Shown: one piece after another, positions 33,509-47,517 of the stretch
How positions within the stretch are numbered: position 1 is the first letter of the stretch
Layout: every line of letters begins with the position of its first letter
DNA from: Escherichia coli
GTDB lineage: Bacteria > Pseudomonadota > Gammaproteobacteria > Enterobacterales > Enterobacteriaceae
Direction: 5' to 3' (one strand)
Assembly: GCF_017348835.2 (NCBI RefSeq)
Contig: NZ_CP071375.1
Length of the DNA stretch: 64,000 nucleotides
Position numbers and translations under genes: made by a program
The notes under the pieces: model-generated
Databases searched by the model: none
The model's input: the letters and a program-made list of their open reading frames with translations, nothing else
Told to the model about the DNA's origin: nothing

Positions 33509-34072
33509 CCTTAAACGGTTAACCACGGTCGAAATCTGACTGCAGGCTTGACTGCATGACCACAGCCACTGTGGATTGTCGCAACCGACCGCAAGCCACG
33601 AATAAGAACGACGGCGAATTTCGAATCGTTACCTGATGCACTGGCTTCCCAGCGTTTGACCGTAGCGTTAAGTAAATCAACAAAAGCGATGTTCACCGCT
33701 TTTCGTCAAGTCGTGCCATTTGTCAGCCAGGATCGGGTCTTTACCCCGGATATTGCAGCATCGCAAAAATTCTTAGAGGGATATGCTATAAATCAAAAAT
33801 AAAATCTTTGTTGATTGTTTATCATAATATCCACAGATATGATAAATGATATCAATTTAATAATTTTCACTTAATGTGATTCCGGATAATTCGAAAGGCG
33901 CTGTGCTTTTCGGATTATTATTATCTGATTAAGATATTTGTCACGCCAGGCTTACTGGTTTATAAATGTCAATCATGATTCTTATAAATTATTTATTGCT
34001 GCTTTGGTTACCATTACTTCGTAATAAGTAATGTATTTTTGATTGTTTAAACTATTTTTAAGGGACGGCATT

Positions 34073-34978
34073 ATGCGAGGGAAAATACCTAAAACGGAAC
34101 TGCTGGTGACTTTTGAGGTCGTCGCACGTCATGAAAGTTATACCAGAGCGGCAGAGGAGTTAGCGTTAACCCAAAGTGCAGTATTCAGACAAGTAAGTGC
34201 GCTGGAGGAATTTTTACGTACTCCGTTATTTTCACACTCTAAAAAACGTATTTTTCTTAATGATGCAGGGAAGTATTACCTGGGGATAGTAAAAGAAACA
34301 TTAAATAAGCTGGAACGCGATACCAATACCATTATGACCTGGCAGCCTACGGTTCAGGTTATTGAACTTGCCGTTAATCCTACTTTTAGTACCCACTGGT
34401 TAATCCCAAATTTACATGAATTCACAAAGTTACATCCCGATATTATTGTTAATATTCATTCTTTAGCTAATAACGGCGATTTTCTTAATCGGGAGTACGA
34501 TGCTGTCATTATGCGCGAAAATTTTTGCGCGCCCTGGGCGGAAGTAGAATATCTCTTTGATGAGGAGATTTTGCCGGTATGCAGCGGCAGTTTGCTTGCA
34601 ATGTCCGATCAAAAACTGTCAGTGGCAGAACTGCTTACTGAGTTACCGCTTCTGCATCAAAGCACCCGTATTACTGGCTGGGAAGAGTGGTTTGCTTTAT
34701 CTGGCGTTAGCAGTCCGCTGGTCAATAACGGACCACGTTTCGATTTGCTATCAATGCTGATTGCCGCCGTGCGCTCTAATCTCGGCGTGGCGCTGTTACC
34801 ACGTTTCGCTATTCAACATGATTTGGATAGTGGCGATATGGTGATCCCCTGTGATGTGCCTATTCGTACCGGTAATCGTTTTATTATGACGTGGCAGGAA
34901 GAGAAGTCTGACTCACCGCACTTGCAGCAATTTCGTGAATGGTTGCTGGTGAAATCGGTCGTACCGCAGGAGATGTAA
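34073..34978 (+). CDS. LysR-type transcriptional regulator (candidate regulator of the adjacent operon)
   Basis: ORF 34043..34978; ATG at 34073 with AGGGA RBS; N-terminal HTH (ELLVTFEVVARHESYTRAAEELALTQSAVFRQVSALEEFL) typical of LysR regulators plus a C-terminal substrate-binding domain. Confidence 0.85.
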   Translation: MRGKIPKTELLVTFEVVARHESYTRAAEELALTQSAVFRQVSALEEFLRTPLFSHSKKRIFLNDAGKYYLGIVKETLNKLERDTNTIMTWQPTVQVIELAVNPTFSTHWLIPNLHEFTKLHPDIIVNIHSLANNGDFLNREYDAVIMRENFCAPWAEVEYLFDEEILPVCSGSLLAMSDQKLSVAELLTELPLLHQSTRITGWEEWFALSGVSSPLVNNGPRFDLLSMLIAAVRSNLGVALLPRFAIQHDLDSGDMVIPCDVPIRTGNRFIMTWQEEKSDSPHLQQFREWLLVKSVVPQEM

Positions 34979-34981
34979 AAC

Positions 34982-35008
34982 CTGCGCCTGGCGGGATGCC
35001 AGGCGCAG
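34982..35008. terminator. Bidirectional hairpin terminator between the convergent LysR gene and adenosyltransferase gene
   Basis: ctgcgcctgg-cgggatg-ccaggcgcag perfect 10-bp stem flanked by T-rich sequence on both strands. Confidence 0.7.
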
Positions 35009-35011
35009 TTA

Positions 35012-35614
35012 TTACCAGTCGATACCCGGCTGGGCCTGAATGCCGTTATCAAAAGCATGTTTGACGGGGCGGATTTCGCTTACCGTATCCGCCATTTTTA
35101 ATATCTGACTGTGGCAACCGCGTCCGGTGACAATGACACTTTGTTGTGCCGGGCGGTTTTGCAGAGAAGCGATCACTTCTTCGGTATCCAAATAATGGTA
35201 AGCCAGCATATAGGTCAGCTCATCAAGCACCACTAAGTCGTAACGCTTGTCAGCCAGCATCCGTTTGCTTTCCGACCAGACCTCTTTCGCCGCGTCGATA
35301 TCCGCTTGCCGGTTCTGTGTCTCCCAGGTAAAACCAGTTCCCATAATATGAAACTCAACCCCCAGCGGCTGGAGAAGGTTGTATTCGCCGTTGTCCCATT
35401 GCCCCTTGATGTACTGCGCAACCCCCACCGTTTTGCCATGACCCACCGCGCGCGTCACAGTACCAAACGCGGCAGTGGATTTCCCTTTGCCGTTGCCGGT
35501 GAAAACAATCAAGATCCCTTTTTTCTCTATCGCCGCTGCGACGCGCGTATCGACCTGTTCCTTCAATTTCTGTTGGCGCTGCACATGCCGTTCAGTTGAA
35601 ATTCGCGCTTCCAT
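35012..35614 (-). CDS. ATP:cob(I)alamin adenosyltransferase (BtuR/CobO/CobA family) paralogue
   Basis: 200-aa ORF MEARISTERHVQRQQKLKEQVDTRVAAAIEKKGILIVFTGNGKGKSTAAFG... closely parallels E. coli BtuR (IIIVFTGNGKGKTTAAFG P-loop, RPVKHAFD); last gene of the operon. Confidence 0.85.
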   Translation of the reverse strand: MEARISTERHVQRQQKLKEQVDTRVAAAIEKKGILIVFTGNGKGKSTAAFGTVTRAVGHGKTVGVAQYIKGQWDNGEYNLLQPLGVEFHIMGTGFTWETQNRQADIDAAKEVWSESKRMLADKRYDLVVLDELTYMLAYHYLDTEEVIASLQNRPAQQSVIVTGRGCHSQILKMADTVSEIRPVKHAFDNGIQAQPGIDW

Positions 35615-35623
35615 TCATTTTCC

Positions 35624-45503: not shown

Positions 45504-45527
45504 AGAGAGATACATAGAGAGATACAT
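45504..45527. repeat. Tandem 12-bp direct repeat in the promoter region of the glutamate-mutase operon
   Basis: agagagatacat agagagatacat, two exact adjacent copies in the AT-rich interval upstream of the S-subunit gene. Confidence 0.6.
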
Positions 45528-45613
45528 GAAGGTGCTACCAGTATGAGTAATGTTATTTAAAGGTTTTATTACGTCTGGCAATAACGCAGGTCATTTTTCG
45601 CGACTGGGTGGGT

Positions 45614-46036
45614 TTAATCAGTATAATCCTCATACAATAGTTCAGGATTAACTGAACCGTTAACGGAGTTTTGATGTTGAAATTTAGAAATGGCGGAGTC
45701 AATCAATGAAGACAGTATTGAAAAAATAACTGTGTCAGAACTAATTTCAATTAATCCTTCTCGTTGCTGACCAAAAAAGATATTTATCTTGATTTCATTT
45801 GTACTACGGCAATCAATATGCAGTAATTTTTGATCGCTGAGATTTTCTGTTTCATAAATGTTTTTGGCGATAGTCGGATGTATTGATGCCAGACATCTGC
45901 TCAGATAAGCCAGATCCTTTAGGGAACACCCCGCTGAGTAGAGGATGTCAGAGAATTTTTGTGTGTCAACTGTTGGCTCTGAAGCGTATGTTGCATTGAC
46001 TGGAAGAGTATTGAAAGAGATCTGAGATGGTATCAT
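45614..46036 (-). CDS. Hypothetical acidic 140-aa protein (no recognised family)
   Basis: ORF MIPSQISFNTLPVNATYASEPTVDTQKFSDILYSAGCSLKDL...ELLYEDYTD; GGAAAG RBS-like sequence upstream; by hand count ~17 acidic vs ~9 basic residues; visibly AT-rich codons. Confidence 0.5.
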   Translation of the reverse strand: MIPSQISFNTLPVNATYASEPTVDTQKFSDILYSAGCSLKDLAYLSRCLASIHPTIAKNIYETENLSDQKLLHIDCRSTNEIKINIFFGQQREGLIEISSDTVIFSILSSLIDSAISKFQHQNSVNGSVNPELLYEDYTD

Positions 46037-46117
46037 TATTTAAATCTTTCCGTGAGTAATAAAAATTAATCCCCAGGCATTGTTTAGCAATATTTGCCAT
46101 AGGGGATATATAGAAAA

Positions 46118-47062
46118 TTAAAGTATTTTATTGGCTTCGGTTAACTGATCTATAACCAGTGCCAGATTGGTAAACATTTTGAAAAAGCGATACTGGCTCG
46201 GAATATCTCTTTCAAAGACGAAACATTCAAGGTCATTGTTTGAAAAATAAAGGACTAGTGTTGCTGATTCGTCAGGGAAAACATGGAAATGTATCTGGTT
46301 ACCAGAAGGAGGATAGTCCAGAAGAAGGGTATCTTTGCCCGTCACATACCTGTTGTGGTCGTGGATGCTGCGCTCACACTTCATCAGAGGTGTCATGATA
46401 CTCATGTATTCATCTGATGTTAATATATTAAAATCACCATCCATTTTAAAGAAACGATAAAGTAACAGTATATCCTCTTGCGTAACCGGTTCGTTTGTTT
46501 TTAGAGGGAAATAAGTGGGAACCAGAAGATGAGGTTCTAATCTATTTTGTTGAGCGCTATAACTAAATTTGAACATAAATTCCGGATCGCTCATTAATTG
46601 AGTGACATAATTATGCCTGGCTTCAAAAATTTTAATTTTTATCAGGTTGAATAAGTCTGTTTCGTCATCCTGTATTAAAAGACATTGGCCATAGCCGCCA
46701 GGCTTTTTTTCATTATAAGCAGAAACGGTTATTCTGTCAGAGGTGTCAACGTTATATTCAAAAGCAAGATAGTGACCTTCTTCATCGCGATTTGTTTCCA
46801 GGTTATTTAAATTCATCACATGAAGTGTTTGCAATGCTGATTCAATGAGCTGTTGACTCTCTGGGGTAAATGTTTCGCGCTGCGTTGTATAAAGTGTATC
46901 AATTCCAACGACTATCCGATGTGGGTCAAGGATGGCGGCAATCATCTTTATTACCTGCACAGTCACGGGTGATGTCATTGATTCTTTATCTGTTTTTAGA
47001 GAATCATTAGATGGCCAACCTGAGAAGCGATTGACAGCCGAACCGATATTATCAGGACTCAT
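46118..47062 (-). CDS. Hypothetical 314-aa protein (no recognised family)
   Basis: ORF MSPDNIGSAVNRFSGWPSNDSLKTDKESMTSPVTVQV... with GAGG RBS 8 nt upstream; no signal peptide or TM helix evident; AT-rich; 81 bp upstream of and co-oriented with the 140-aa ORF. Confidence 0.55.
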   Translation of the reverse strand: MSPDNIGSAVNRFSGWPSNDSLKTDKESMTSPVTVQVIKMIAAILDPHRIVVGIDTLYTTQRETFTPESQQLIESALQTLHVMNLNNLETNRDEEGHYLAFEYNVDTSDRITVSAYNEKKPGGYGQCLLIQDDETDLFNLIKIKIFEARHNYVTQLMSDPEFMFKFSYSAQQNRLEPHLLVPTYFPLKTNEPVTQEDILLLYRFFKMDGDFNILTSDEYMSIMTPLMKCERSIHDHNRYVTGKDTLLLDYPPSGNQIHFHVFPDESATLVLYFSNNDLECFVFERDIPSQYRFFKMFTNLALVIDQLTEANKIL

Positions 47063-47517
47063 AGCAGCAACCTCATTGTAATCAAGCGAGGCGCTGAGCG
47101 TACTCGGCTATAGAAAAACTAACTTGCAAAAATCGCTCATTTTTCATTTATCAGGCGAAAGTAGCCTCTGTTCACTCAGAAACAATCACTCCCGGTAAGT
47201 CATACCTGTTTCATCGATACATTTAAGTGATTATTACTAATGAAACAATAACATAACGGGCTTACGGTCGGTGCTCATAAAGGCAACAATCAATTAACTT
47301 TGATAAAAATATGTTATGTAAAATAGCAACAAATTGGCTACTCTAATCAATTGGTATTATAAAAAGTTGATTGGGCGGTTCTGTTAAATAAAACACTGGT
47401 TTTTTATCTATACCTTTTCATTGTAATAATTGTGTTGCATAAATATTTCACAATAAATTAACAATAAAATCACCAATGATCTATGGTTTATACATAATTA
47501 ACATATTTGGTTGTTTT

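Follow-up and report, generated by a model that had tools for sequence, protein, structure and literature searches.

The segment between sucD and cydA in the window (the whole 64,000-nt stretch of Escherichia coli DNA analysed here) is the already described B12-dependent cluster for the conversion of glutamate to pyruvate and acetate, found in some E. coli strains including O157:H7. It is very probably the methylaspartate-pathway locus of the enterobacteria, here as an Escherichia version with slight decay, ancestral in origin and differentially lost.

Extent and gene content of the segment

E. coli PE164 matches the window at 100 % identity. Between the end of sucD (33406) and the start of cydA (47865), ca. 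13.7–14.0 kb, from the sucD terminator (33509) to the cydA regulatory region, are absent from K-12. Homology to K-12 and to strains 405, LTC101, M24 and VE-T9 stops at 33507–33509, the left junction being exactly 33509 in each comparison, and the right junction in pairwise blastn depends on the partner, being 47227 against TPR-type strains and 47492 against K-12. A preliminary description of this DNA had bounded the interval at 33509–47100, of which the left edge stands and the right edge moves to one of these two positions. Collinearity with K-12, named there beforehand as the result that would speak against a strain-variable segment missing from that strain, was tested by alignment and not found; K-12 does carry mngR-mngA-mngB in this interval, as had been stated there. 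The features of the segment are as follows.

33482–33499, plus strand: sucD terminator hairpin (terminator-like site), the last DNA common to all strains before the variable part
33509–33605, minus strand: rtcB relic in two fragments (33509–33548 and 33549–33605), both matching an RtcB-family gene in its 3′ part
33609–33802, plus strand: hutH relic, 3′ end of the histidine ammonia-lyase gene, with the original stop codon at 33800–33802
34073–34978, plus strand: lysR, LysR-family regulator, GcvA-like (CDS annotated in PE164; best NCBIfam match GcvA, 220 bits, under the cutoff of 288)
34982–35008, no strand: G+C-rich hairpin of 11 pairs (9 G-C) between lysR and cobO, the top terminator-like site of the scan
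35012–35614, minus strand: cobO, ATP:cob(I)alamin adenosyltransferase, adenosylcobalamin supply for glutamate mutase (NCBIfam TIGR00708 cobA equivalog, 246.6 bits, cutoff 167.75)
35624–37276, minus strand: fumD, class I (Fe-S) fumarase/mesaconase, mesaconate + H2O to (S)-citramalate (NCBIfam NF011921, 1271 bits, cutoff 1060)
37384–38664, minus strand: DAACS dicarboxylate/amino acid:cation symporter (DctA, 311.7 bits, cutoff 513; GltP, 300.8 bits, cutoff 638; both below cutoff)
38825–39142, minus strand: cmlB, DUF4387, putative citramalate lyase small subunit (PDB 9ERQ chain B)
39139–40509, minus strand: cmlA, AtuA family/DUF1446, putative citramalate lyase large subunit, (S)-citramalate to pyruvate + acetate (PDB 9ERQ chain A; Pfam AtuA, E = 1e-16)
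40513–41754, minus strand: mal, methylaspartate ammonia-lyase, 3-methylaspartate to mesaconate + NH3 (TIGR01502 equivalog, 544.9 bits, cutoff 286)
41754–43199, minus strand: glmE, glutamate (methylaspartate) mutase subunit E (TIGR01503 equivalog, 866 bits, cutoff 390)
43218–44606, minus strand: glmL, glutamate mutase accessory/reactivating protein (NF040745 equivalog, 509 bits, cutoff 475)
44606–45055, minus strand: glmS, B12-binding subunit S of glutamate mutase (NF002612 equivalog, 253 bits, cutoff 110)
45056–45613, minus strand: AT-rich region of 558 bp, ca. 31 % GC by composition, upstream of glmS
45614–46036, minus strand: 140-aa orphan gene, with homologues all from E. coli or Shigella
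46118–47062, minus strand: 314-aa orphan gene, Escherichia only
47227–47864, plus strand: cydA upstream regulatory region, common to other strains (pairwise blastn)

All genes named in the preliminary description are intact and at the positions it gave. Its ten-gene co-directional operon comes down to nine genes, in the order glmS-glmL-glmE-mal-cmlA-cmlB-symporter-fumD-cobO, whereas its core reading of a B12-dependent methylaspartate route of glutamate breakdown holds. The cluster has a host-like GC content of ca. 52 %, and its genes are closely packed or overlapping, with a strong hairpin past cobO and no strong terminator within. Gaps of 160 bp (cmlB-symporter) and 107 bp (symporter-fumD) make internal promoters possible, and a single operon is therefore unproven. 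The hairpin at 34982–35008, where lysR and cobO converge, is a probable two-way terminator at the operon end.

The translation of glmS contains the DxHxxG motif as D-C-H-A-V-G. FumD shares 542 of its 550 residues (98.5 %) with the O157:H7 protein, which has been characterised biochemically and has published mesaconase activity (Kronen and Berg, 2015; PMC4682846); the preliminary description was right on a mesaconase-active FumD in an O157:H7 cluster. The symporter is presumed to be a glutamate importer, and its counterpart carries the label GltP in Figure 5 of PMC4682846.

The two AT-rich orphan genes next to glmS (31–38 % GC) yielded no match in Pfam, NCBIfam, PADLOC or PHROG. The 140-aa orphan (dN/dS ca. 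0.1) is not present in other genera. For the 314-aa orphan (dN/dS ca. 0.4), searches among 5.8 and 1.8 billion proteins returned close relatives or fragments only, and its AlphaFold model was uninformative (pLDDT 43).

A putative citramalate lyase completes the pathway on paper

Kronen and Berg (2015; PMC4682846) did not settle what becomes of citramalate and listed the AtuA-like gene as one of "unknown function (DUF1446)". CmlA is identical in 421 of 456 residues (92.3 %) to chain A of PDB 9ERQ, named "Citramalate lyase, subunit A (cmlA)", and CmlB in 88 of 104 residues (84.6 %) to chain B, "Citramalate lyase, subunit B (cmlB)"; the chains of PDB 9EVF are named likewise. The solved chain A is 100 % identical to the product of the gene at the same sucD-cydA locus of Klebsiella michiganensis. 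A literature search did not find a primary description of CmlAB; a preprint reports direct cleavage of citramalate to pyruvate and acetate by Raoultella cmlAB (bioRxiv 10.64898/2026.01.16.699985). The putative activity of E. coli CmlAB is thus assigned from PDB molecule names and one preprint on the Raoultella enzyme. As in the known Cml systems (PDB 9ERQ and 9EVF; Cml of Raoultella planticola), the AtuA-family and DUF4387 genes overlap and lie directly downstream of mal. Cell extracts of O157:H7 lacked citramalate lyase activity under the conditions tested. Because this formerly unknown pair matches CmlA/CmlB, the route from glutamate through methylaspartate, mesaconate and (S)-citramalate to pyruvate and acetate is complete on paper. 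The preliminary description had called the pathway complete, which is right, but only because the pair it left unnamed corresponds to a two-subunit citramalate lyase.

In the proposed pathway, the symporter would import glutamate, which adenosylcobalamin-dependent GlmS/GlmE would convert to (2S,3S)-3-methylaspartate, with GlmL maintaining mutase activity and CobO adenosylating salvaged cobalamin. Mal would strip ammonia from methylaspartate to give mesaconate, the Fe-S class I fumarase FumD would hydrate it to (S)-citramalate, as shown for the O157:H7 enzyme, and CmlAB would split citramalate directly into pyruvate and acetate, as shown for close orthologues.

It is improbable that the pathway serves an end other than energy or carbon, be it acid resistance, the release of nitrogen or the making of mesaconate or citramalate as a C5-dicarboxylate for secretion or signalling, with CmlAB playing a minor or reverse (synthetic) role. 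Kronen and Berg did raise citramalate secretion as a possibility and cite earlier work in which no enterobacterial strain tested grew on glutamate or methylaspartate alone (PMC4682846), and the authors of the preprint suspect that cleavage of citramalate becomes thermodynamically unfavourable at high acetate, which would fit a near-reversible reaction. However, the position of cmlAB directly after mal across phyla, together with an importer, fits complete catabolism to pyruvate and acetate, and laboratory-evolved isolates of an acetyl-CoA auxotroph expressing Cml, but not the unevolved strain, showed growth that depended on both mesaconate and Cml (bioRxiv 10.64898/2026.01.16.699985).

Comparison with known systems

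The window matches, gene for gene and in order, the cluster of the O157:H7 ECs0757 region (Kronen and Berg, 2015; PLoS One, PMC4682846), which comprises LTTR, CobA, FumD, a GltP-like transporter, DUF1446, Mal, GlmE, MutL/GlmL and GlmS, and shows 98.6 % nucleotide identity to an O157:H7 genome across the whole 14.9 kb. Nothing essential sets the window's cluster apart from this one, to which it belongs. That paper does not touch on where the cluster lies between sucD and cydA, on the relics of rtcB and hutH or on the hut operon next to it in some strains.

The description of the route as clostridial-type applies to its first three steps, for which the clusters of Clostridium tetanomorphum and C. 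tetani contain homologous glmS, glmL/mutL, glmE and mal genes in the same order, and not to the last two, although the net conversion of glutamate into pyruvate and acetate is the same. The clostridial mesaconase is a split MesA/MesB enzyme instead of the single-chain FumD, and citramalate is cleaved there by an acyl-carrier-protein-dependent CitDEF-type lyase with CitCXG accessory proteins, unrelated to CmlAB. The clostridial regulator is of GntR type rather than LysR type, and the window locus, unlike the clostridial cluster, has its own transporter and cobalamin adenosyltransferase. The haloarchaeal methylaspartate cycle (Haloarcula) differs in converting mesaconate to mesaconyl-CoA for acetate assimilation, whereas the window locus encodes no CoA-transferase and FumD hydrates mesaconate.

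Regulation, selection and reported activity

The LysR protein presumably regulates the nine-gene cluster, and the AT-rich region 45056–45613 is presumed to hold its promoter/operator; no riboswitch was found, nor any other Rfam match at E ≤ 1 within 33000–48000. In Klebsiella, Citrobacter, Salmonella and Yersinia, too, lysR is a conserved neighbour of the cluster. A PocR-like AraC-family regulator adjoins the cluster at 25 loci of Klebsiella, Citrobacter and Salmonella and at no Escherichia locus, suggesting that regulation in Escherichia may differ or be defective.

These data bear on whether the cluster is a silent, decaying remnant, intact but unexpressed after loss of its native activator (the PocR-like protein) and heading for deletion. 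In O157:H7 ATCC 700728, none of the conditions tried by Kronen and Berg gave expression, methylaspartase or citramalate lyase activity, or growth on glutamate (PMC4682846). The region is often lost or truncated: the cluster is missing from 80 % of E. coli genomes, strain VE-T9 shows an IS1 truncation, rtcB and hutH survive as relics, and in E. whittamii and Escherichia sp. E1V33 the symporter and cobO have no match over at least half their length. Against this, all nine genes are full length and under strong purifying selection within E. coli (dN/dS 0.01–0.27), at dS of up to 0.10, which is unexpected after long silence; the regulator is retained and conserved (dN/dS ca. 0.06), and earlier work cited by Kronen and Berg found methylaspartase activity widespread in enterobacteria (PMC4682846). 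We therefore consider a silent remnant rather unlikely, though less so than the non-catabolic role above.

Distribution and ancestry of the locus

The segment occurs in 1117 of the 5426 complete E. coli genomes (20.6 %; the share of E. coli strains given in PMC4682846 is 26.5 %). Its order, sucD-lysR-cobO-fumD-symporter-cmlB-cmlA-mal-glmE-glmL-glmS-cydA, is common to Klebsiella, Citrobacter, Salmonella (arizonae, diarizonae) and Pseudescherichia, with the locus, its order and its flanks recurring in E. whittamii and cryptic Escherichia clades. More than 20 species in five genera share these flanks and this gene order. Identity is graded, from 96–97 % in Escherichia through ca. 91–92 % in Klebsiella, Citrobacter and Salmonella and 83 % in Pseudescherichia to 77–80 % in Yersinia and Hafnia. 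The block glmS-glmL-glmE-mal-cmlA-cmlB stays together from the Enterobacteriaceae to Aromatoleum/Azoarcus, Telmatospirillum, Bacillota, Desulfotomaculum and Dictyoglomaceae. Judging from synteny and graded identity, the locus would be ancestral in enterobacteria and predate Escherichia rather than being a recent foreign insertion. Since the order is shared across genera, the polymorphism in E. coli would reflect mainly differential loss; lineages may also have exchanged the whole interval by homologous recombination.

A horizontally acquired island in a subset of E. coli, displacing mngR-mngAB by homologous recombination in the sucD and cydA flanks, could account for the minority of carriers, the presence of mngRAB in the same interval in K-12, the AT-rich DNA at both segment ends and the sharp junctions within conserved flanks. 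Yet the locus, order and flanks recur in the related genera and Escherichia clades listed above, GC content is host-like, and dS in the cluster (0.04–0.10) is comparable to that of flanking sucD (0.09–0.13). The window's copy contains no integrase or IS element, as had been noted before, and no direct or inverted repeats of at least 9 bp are common to both junctions. Cluster-less TPR-type strains preserve a 73-bp glmS relic (78 % identity) upstream of cydA. Furthermore, mngRAB, rtcB and the cluster occur together in 134 genomes, and others have neither mngRAB nor the cluster; the two are therefore not alternative alleles, and the proposed replacement of mngR-mngAB does not hold in that simple form. 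Such an island thus has little probability. The old acquisition proposed earlier is right, and is sharpened by the gene order shared across genera; the position in the TCA-cycle block would predate Escherichia, with no insertion there within E. coli.

Relics at the left edge and history of the locus

The region 33509–34072 is more than a spacer, containing the rtcB and hutH relics, which the preliminary description had overlooked. Strain 405 has an intact rtcB, with which the two fragments share 92.5 % and 91.2 % nucleotide identity, and tblastn matches them to RtcB residues 375–398 and 451–465; they are collinear with strain AH50 except for a 175-bp deletion. In translation, the hutH relic aligns with positions 453–497 of 505, at the C-terminal end of histidine ammonia-lyase models in NCBIfam (E = 4e-4), and its nucleotide identity to the 3′ end of AH50 hutH is 87–89 %. 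Overall, the left edge is collinear with AH50 bar deletions of 175, 9093 and 343 bp. The full histidine utilisation (hut) operon is kept there in 144 E. coli genomes and the relic alone in ca. 810, and the window's left junction is common to 835 genomes.

As an ancestral locus, the cluster would have been lost by ca. 80 % of E. coli, K-12 included. The Escherichia neighbourhood would have gained rtcB, the hut operon (histidine to glutamate), mngRAB and the two AT-rich orphans, and the lineage of the window would later have deleted ca. 9.6 kb with the bulk of rtcB and of the hut operon, so that the relics at 33509–33802 remain beside a nine-gene cluster presumably under LysR control.

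Gene content and boundaries of the sucD-cydA interval

The window matches the chromosome of PE164, an E. coli isolate from pig, at 100 % identity, and its sucD-cydA interval contains the following features.

Features of the sucD-cydA interval (window coordinates)
33406, end of sucD
33482–33499, sucD terminator hairpin
34073–34978, plus strand, LysR-family regulator gene
34982–35008, strong hairpin 3′ of cobO
35012–35614, minus strand, cobO
35624–37276, minus strand, class I fumarase gene fumD
37384–38664, minus strand, DAACS symporter gene
38825–39142, minus strand, DUF4387 gene, cmlB
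39139–40509, minus strand, AtuA-family gene, cmlA
40513–41754, minus strand, mal
41754–43199, minus strand, glmE
43218–44606, minus strand, glmL
44606–45055, minus strand, glmS
45614–46036 and 46118–47062, minus strand, two orphan genes in a stretch of 31–38 % GC
47865, start of cydA

A preliminary description had placed an accessory island at 33509–47100. Its start was exact: in local alignments with five other E. coli configurations the left junction always falls at 33509, directly after the sucD hairpin (a global MAFFT alignment was uninformative for this junction, and local blastn was used in its place). Its end has to be moved, because homology resumes in local blastn at 47227 versus strains carrying a TPR gene in the interval and at 47492 versus K-12; the variable DNA thus comprises ca. 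13.7–14.0 kb, with its right end inside the cydA upstream region. In line with that description, neither mobility genes (integrase, transposase) nor insertion sequences were annotated or found among the ORFs of the window's copy, and there were no direct or inverted repeats of at least 9 bp common to both junctions.

The ca. 380 bp upstream of cydA (47492–47868) show 80 % identity to K-12, and the TPR-type strains M24 and LTC101 show 90–91 % identity to the window over 47227–47868, cydA itself being nearly invariant. The cydAB regulatory region seems, from these alignments, to exist in divergent versions tied to the adjoining gene content.

A methylaspartate pathway complete on paper

NCBIfam matches and gene coordinates confirmed a B12-dependent glutamate/methylaspartate cluster between sucD and cydA. 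Equivalog matches were above the curated cutoffs for GlmS (253 bits vs. 110), whose sequence contains the DxHxxG cobalamin-binding motif, and GlmE (866 vs. 390), and likewise for GlmL (509 vs. 475) and CobO. The product of mal, whose start overlaps the glmE stop codon at 41754, matches TIGR01502 with 544.9 bits (cutoff, 286). FumD scores 1271 bits against NF011921 (cutoff, 1060) and is identical in 542 of 550 residues to FumD of the O157:H7 strain Z1834; this extra fumarase was named by Kronen and Berg (2015; PMC4682846), who showed that the O157:H7 enzyme prefers mesaconate over fumarate, and the window protein differs from it in eight residues.

The fate of (S)-citramalate was left open in that study, where the gene following mal was labelled as of unknown function (DUF1446). 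Searching the Protein Data Bank by sequence showed that the AtuA-family and DUF4387 proteins are identical in 421 of 456 and 88 of 104 residues, respectively, to chains A and B of entries 9ERQ and 9EVF, named by the depositors "Citramalate lyase, subunit A (cmlA)" and "subunit B (cmlB)". Klebsiella michiganensis has, at the same sucD-cydA locus, a gene whose product matches the solved chain A at 100 % identity, and in the window cmlA and cmlB are adjacent, with a 4 bp overlap. This match settles the formerly unknown pair as the predicted citramalate lyase CmlAB; a structure prediction for the pair was dropped once the solved structures were found. A literature search for a primary description of CmlAB yielded solely a preprint using the enzyme, which states that Raoultella Cml converts (S)-citramalate to pyruvate and acetate in a CoA-free reaction (bioRxiv 10.64898/2026.01.16.699985); the molecule names in the PDB entries imply this activity too.

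Since the pair corresponds to CmlAB, the four chemical steps (mutase, ammonia-lyase, mesaconase and citramalate lyase) are all encoded, making the pathway complete on paper. By orthology of GlmSE, Mal, FumD and CmlAB to characterised enzymes, glutamate would be converted to 3-methylaspartate, then to mesaconate and (S)-citramalate, and finally to pyruvate plus acetate, and the cluster also has genes for a transporter, a chaperone of the mutase and a cobalamin adenosyltransferase. As the symporter scores below the NCBIfam cutoffs for both DctA and GltP, its substrate can only be inferred; likewise, we infer the ligand of the LysR-family regulator and the co-transcription of all nine genes.

The cluster is the one published by Kronen and Berg (2015; PMC4682846), the only study matched in a literature search with the O157 Sakai locus tags, and an O157:H7 genome matches the window at 98.6 % identity across the entire 14.9 kb. 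The preliminary description, which supposed that the island was already known, was therefore right on this point, and what it reported does exist and was, in the main, interpreted correctly. Two of its details need amending: the co-directional cluster that it took for a ten-gene operon has nine genes, and the route that it called complete and clostridial does appear complete, given CmlAB, but differs from the clostridial pathway in the last two enzymes, FumD and CmlAB, in place of which clostridia have a split MesAB and a CitDEF-like lyase.

Independent modules in the E. coli interval

At least 80 % of the segment is held by 1117 of 5426 complete E. coli genomes (20.6 %); the published frequencies of the cluster are 26.5 % among E. 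coli strains and 90.6 % among those of O157:H7 (PMC4682846). As the preliminary description stated, the K-12 interval holds mngR-mngA-mngB, and nothing else. However, the idea that the cluster had replaced mngRAB did not hold, because E. coli strain 405 carries mngRAB, rtcB and the cluster together, and the mngB-rtcB junction occurs in 134 genomes (the junction query matched 691 genomes, though mngB is common, and only those with a query coverage of 80 % or more were counted). Other strains contain rtcB plus the cluster, mngRAB plus a TPR gene, a TPR pseudogene alone, or a cluster truncated by IS1. The interval is thus a mosaic of independent modules, and since combined and separate modules coexist across strains, mngRAB and the cluster are not alternative alleles. 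No relics of the island were found in the 470 bp private to K-12 between mngB and cydA, which look REP-like by eye.

In the truncated cluster, from strain VE-T9 (positions 7614–8955 of its locus), IS1 connects the truncated remainders of rtcB and of the DUF4387 gene (cmlB), with loss of lysR, cobO, fumD and the symporter gene; glmS through cmlA are intact, and a frameshift affects the 140-aa orphan gene. In Citrobacter amalonaticus S646, mngR-mngA-mngB lies at the glmS side of the cluster, and in strain 405 at the sucD side; from these opposite positions, the mng module moves within the interval independently of the cluster.

Relics of rtcB and of a hut operon

The 33509–34072 region is more than a plain spacer, since it contains relics of two genes: 33509–33605 corresponds to two pieces from the 3′ portion of rtcB, and 33609–33802 to the in-frame C-terminus of histidine ammonia-lyase (HutH), ending in a stop codon. 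The undeleted arrangement is found in E. coli AH50 (NZ_CP169755.1, 3504000–3540000), with the order sucD-rtcB-hutU-permease-hutD-hutI-hutG-hutH-lysR-cluster; the window is collinear with AH50 save for deletions of 175, 9093 and 343 bp, and the cluster genes of both are ca. 98 % identical. The full hut block (hutU, permease, hutD, hutI, hutG and hutH) plus an intact rtcB lie between sucD and lysR in 144 of the 5426 complete genomes, the hutH relic occurs in the absence of the hut block in ca. 810 genomes, and the left junction of the window in 835. The relic is also present in Escherichia whittamii and in one cryptic Escherichia clade, indicating an old association of the locus with hut in this genus.

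In strains with intact rtcB and no hut operon, ca. 460 bp upstream of lysR (in strain 405 between rtcB and lysR, 9121–9583 of its locus) are unlike both the window and AH50. These sequences point to a separate deletion or replacement at that spot.

The hut pathway ends in glutamate, and therefore in the full locus a module leading from histidine to glutamate adjoins one that would lead from glutamate to pyruvate plus acetate.

A probable ancestral enterobacterial locus

A scan with CmlA, using one genome per species, yielded 57 loci, onto which we mapped all proteins of the island and its flanks. Loci arranged as SucD-LysR-CobO-FumD-symporter-CmlB-CmlA-Mal-GlmE-GlmL-GlmS-CydA occur again in the Klebsiella oxytoca group, in many species of Citrobacter, in Salmonella enterica subsp. 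arizonae and diarizonae, and in cryptic clades of Escherichia. Flanks and order are also kept in Pseudescherichia vulneris and E. whittamii, with no match for CobO in either and none for the symporter in E. whittamii. In all, five genera have the cluster between these two flanking genes. Identity of CmlA decreases stepwise: 96–97 % in Escherichia, ca. 91–92 % in Klebsiella, Citrobacter and Salmonella, 83 % in Pseudescherichia, and 77–80 % in Yersinia, Hafnia and Budvicia. The glmS-glmL-glmE-mal-cmlA-cmlB core persists in Aromatoleum/Azoarcus, Telmatospirillum, Bacillota, Desulfotomaculum and Dictyoglomaceae, which supports CmlAB being functionally linked to the mutase and the lyase. In two metagenome-assembled genomes, assigned to "Citrobacter sp." and "Collinsella sp.", there are contigs with cluster proteins 97–100 % identical to those of the window, and these contigs are most likely mis-binned E. 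coli DNA.

A classical genomic island acquired horizontally is unlikely: there is no sign of mobility genes, of insertion at a tRNA gene or of junction repeats of at least 9 bp, the same site is occupied in five genera, and the GC content is not foreign, being ca. 52 % (host-like) in the operon, with AT-richness confined to the orphan pair and the intergenic regions. Additionally, strains with a TPR gene and no cluster contain, between this gene and cydA, a 73-bp piece with 78 % identity to the interior of glmS (window 44751–44822; positions 9459–9527 in one of the two loci aligned, L006, the other being L005), matching it in orientation and relative position, upstream of cydA. This piece is probably a relic of cluster loss. 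Together, synteny, the glmS relic in TPR-type strains and the host-like GC of the operon suggest, as the best reading, that the locus is ancestral to enterobacteria and was lost by most E. coli.

The AT-rich orphan genes

The two orphan genes showed no match in Pfam, NCBIfam, PADLOC or PHROGs, and searches of 5.8 and 1.8 billion proteins for distant relatives retrieved only copies or fragments from Escherichia/Shigella. An origin in a defence system or a phage is not supported by PADLOC/PHROGs or homology searches. The AlphaFold model of the 314-aa protein has no confident fold (pLDDT 43). Purifying selection acts on the 140-aa gene (dN/dS ca. 0.1), and constraint on the 314-aa gene is weaker (ca. 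0.4). Since glmS and cydA are divergent neighbours ca. 1.2 kb apart in Klebsiella, Citrobacter and Salmonella, the AT-rich pair is an insertion into this spacer exclusive to Escherichia. Both orphan genes are absent from E. whittamii and Escherichia sp. E1V33, where the cluster lies between sucD and cydA, and neither the symporter nor cobO has a match that covers half of its length or more.

Transcription, regulation and expression

Neighbouring cluster genes overlap or are separated by 3–18 bp, the exceptions being the 160 bp between cmlB and the symporter gene and the 107 bp between that gene and fumD, and a terminator scan revealed no strong terminator inside the cluster. No cobalamin riboswitch or other Rfam element was matched at E ≤ 1 on either strand of 33000–48000, including the AT-rich leaders.

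Expression has never been seen in E. coli and is negative so far in O157:H7, where the strain assayed had neither methylaspartase nor citramalate lyase activity and did not grow on glutamate under the conditions tried (PMC4682846). Within E. coli, purifying selection acts on all nine cluster genes (dN/dS 0.01–0.27), and their dS values (0.04–0.10) resemble those of the flanking sucD (0.09–0.13). This selection argues against a dead locus and, indirectly, for function.

A PocR-like AraC-family regulator gene lies between lysR and sucD in Klebsiella, Citrobacter and Salmonella (18323–19090 in locus L014, also in L022, L037 and 22 other loci), with an NCBIfam PocR score of 135.6 bits that is below the cutoff of this family. 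No homolog was found in the window or at any Escherichia locus compared, and it might be speculated that its absence bears on expression having gone undetected in O157:H7. A gene similar to those for uroporphyrinogen-III methyltransferase also occurs between lysR and sucD in Citrobacter. By analogy with Clostridium tetanomorphum, a tentative and rather doubtful proposal is that the segment in the window is the trimmed remnant of a ca. 23 kb locus in which hut and the cluster would form one histidine/glutamate fermentation unit, the undetected expression in O157:H7 possibly being due to the absence of the PocR-like activator and to histidine or urocanate plus cobalamin, at low oxygen, never having been supplied.

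Biological significance

With respect to what was described in 2015, the formerly unknown pair can be assigned to CmlAB, completing the pathway on paper; the locus appears ancestral to several enterobacterial genera and in the process of being lost in E. coli, instead of gained by pathogens; and the relics connect the copy in the window with a more extensive hut-plus-glm locus retained by some strains. These relics also suggest inducing conditions, namely histidine or glutamate, cobalamin and low oxygen. Around one fifth of E. coli strains, including nearly all O157:H7, have in the cluster the genetic means for anaerobic, cobalamin-linked use of glutamate. Glutamate is abundant in the gut, and gut colonisation may be where the cluster matters, should it operate in E. 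coli.
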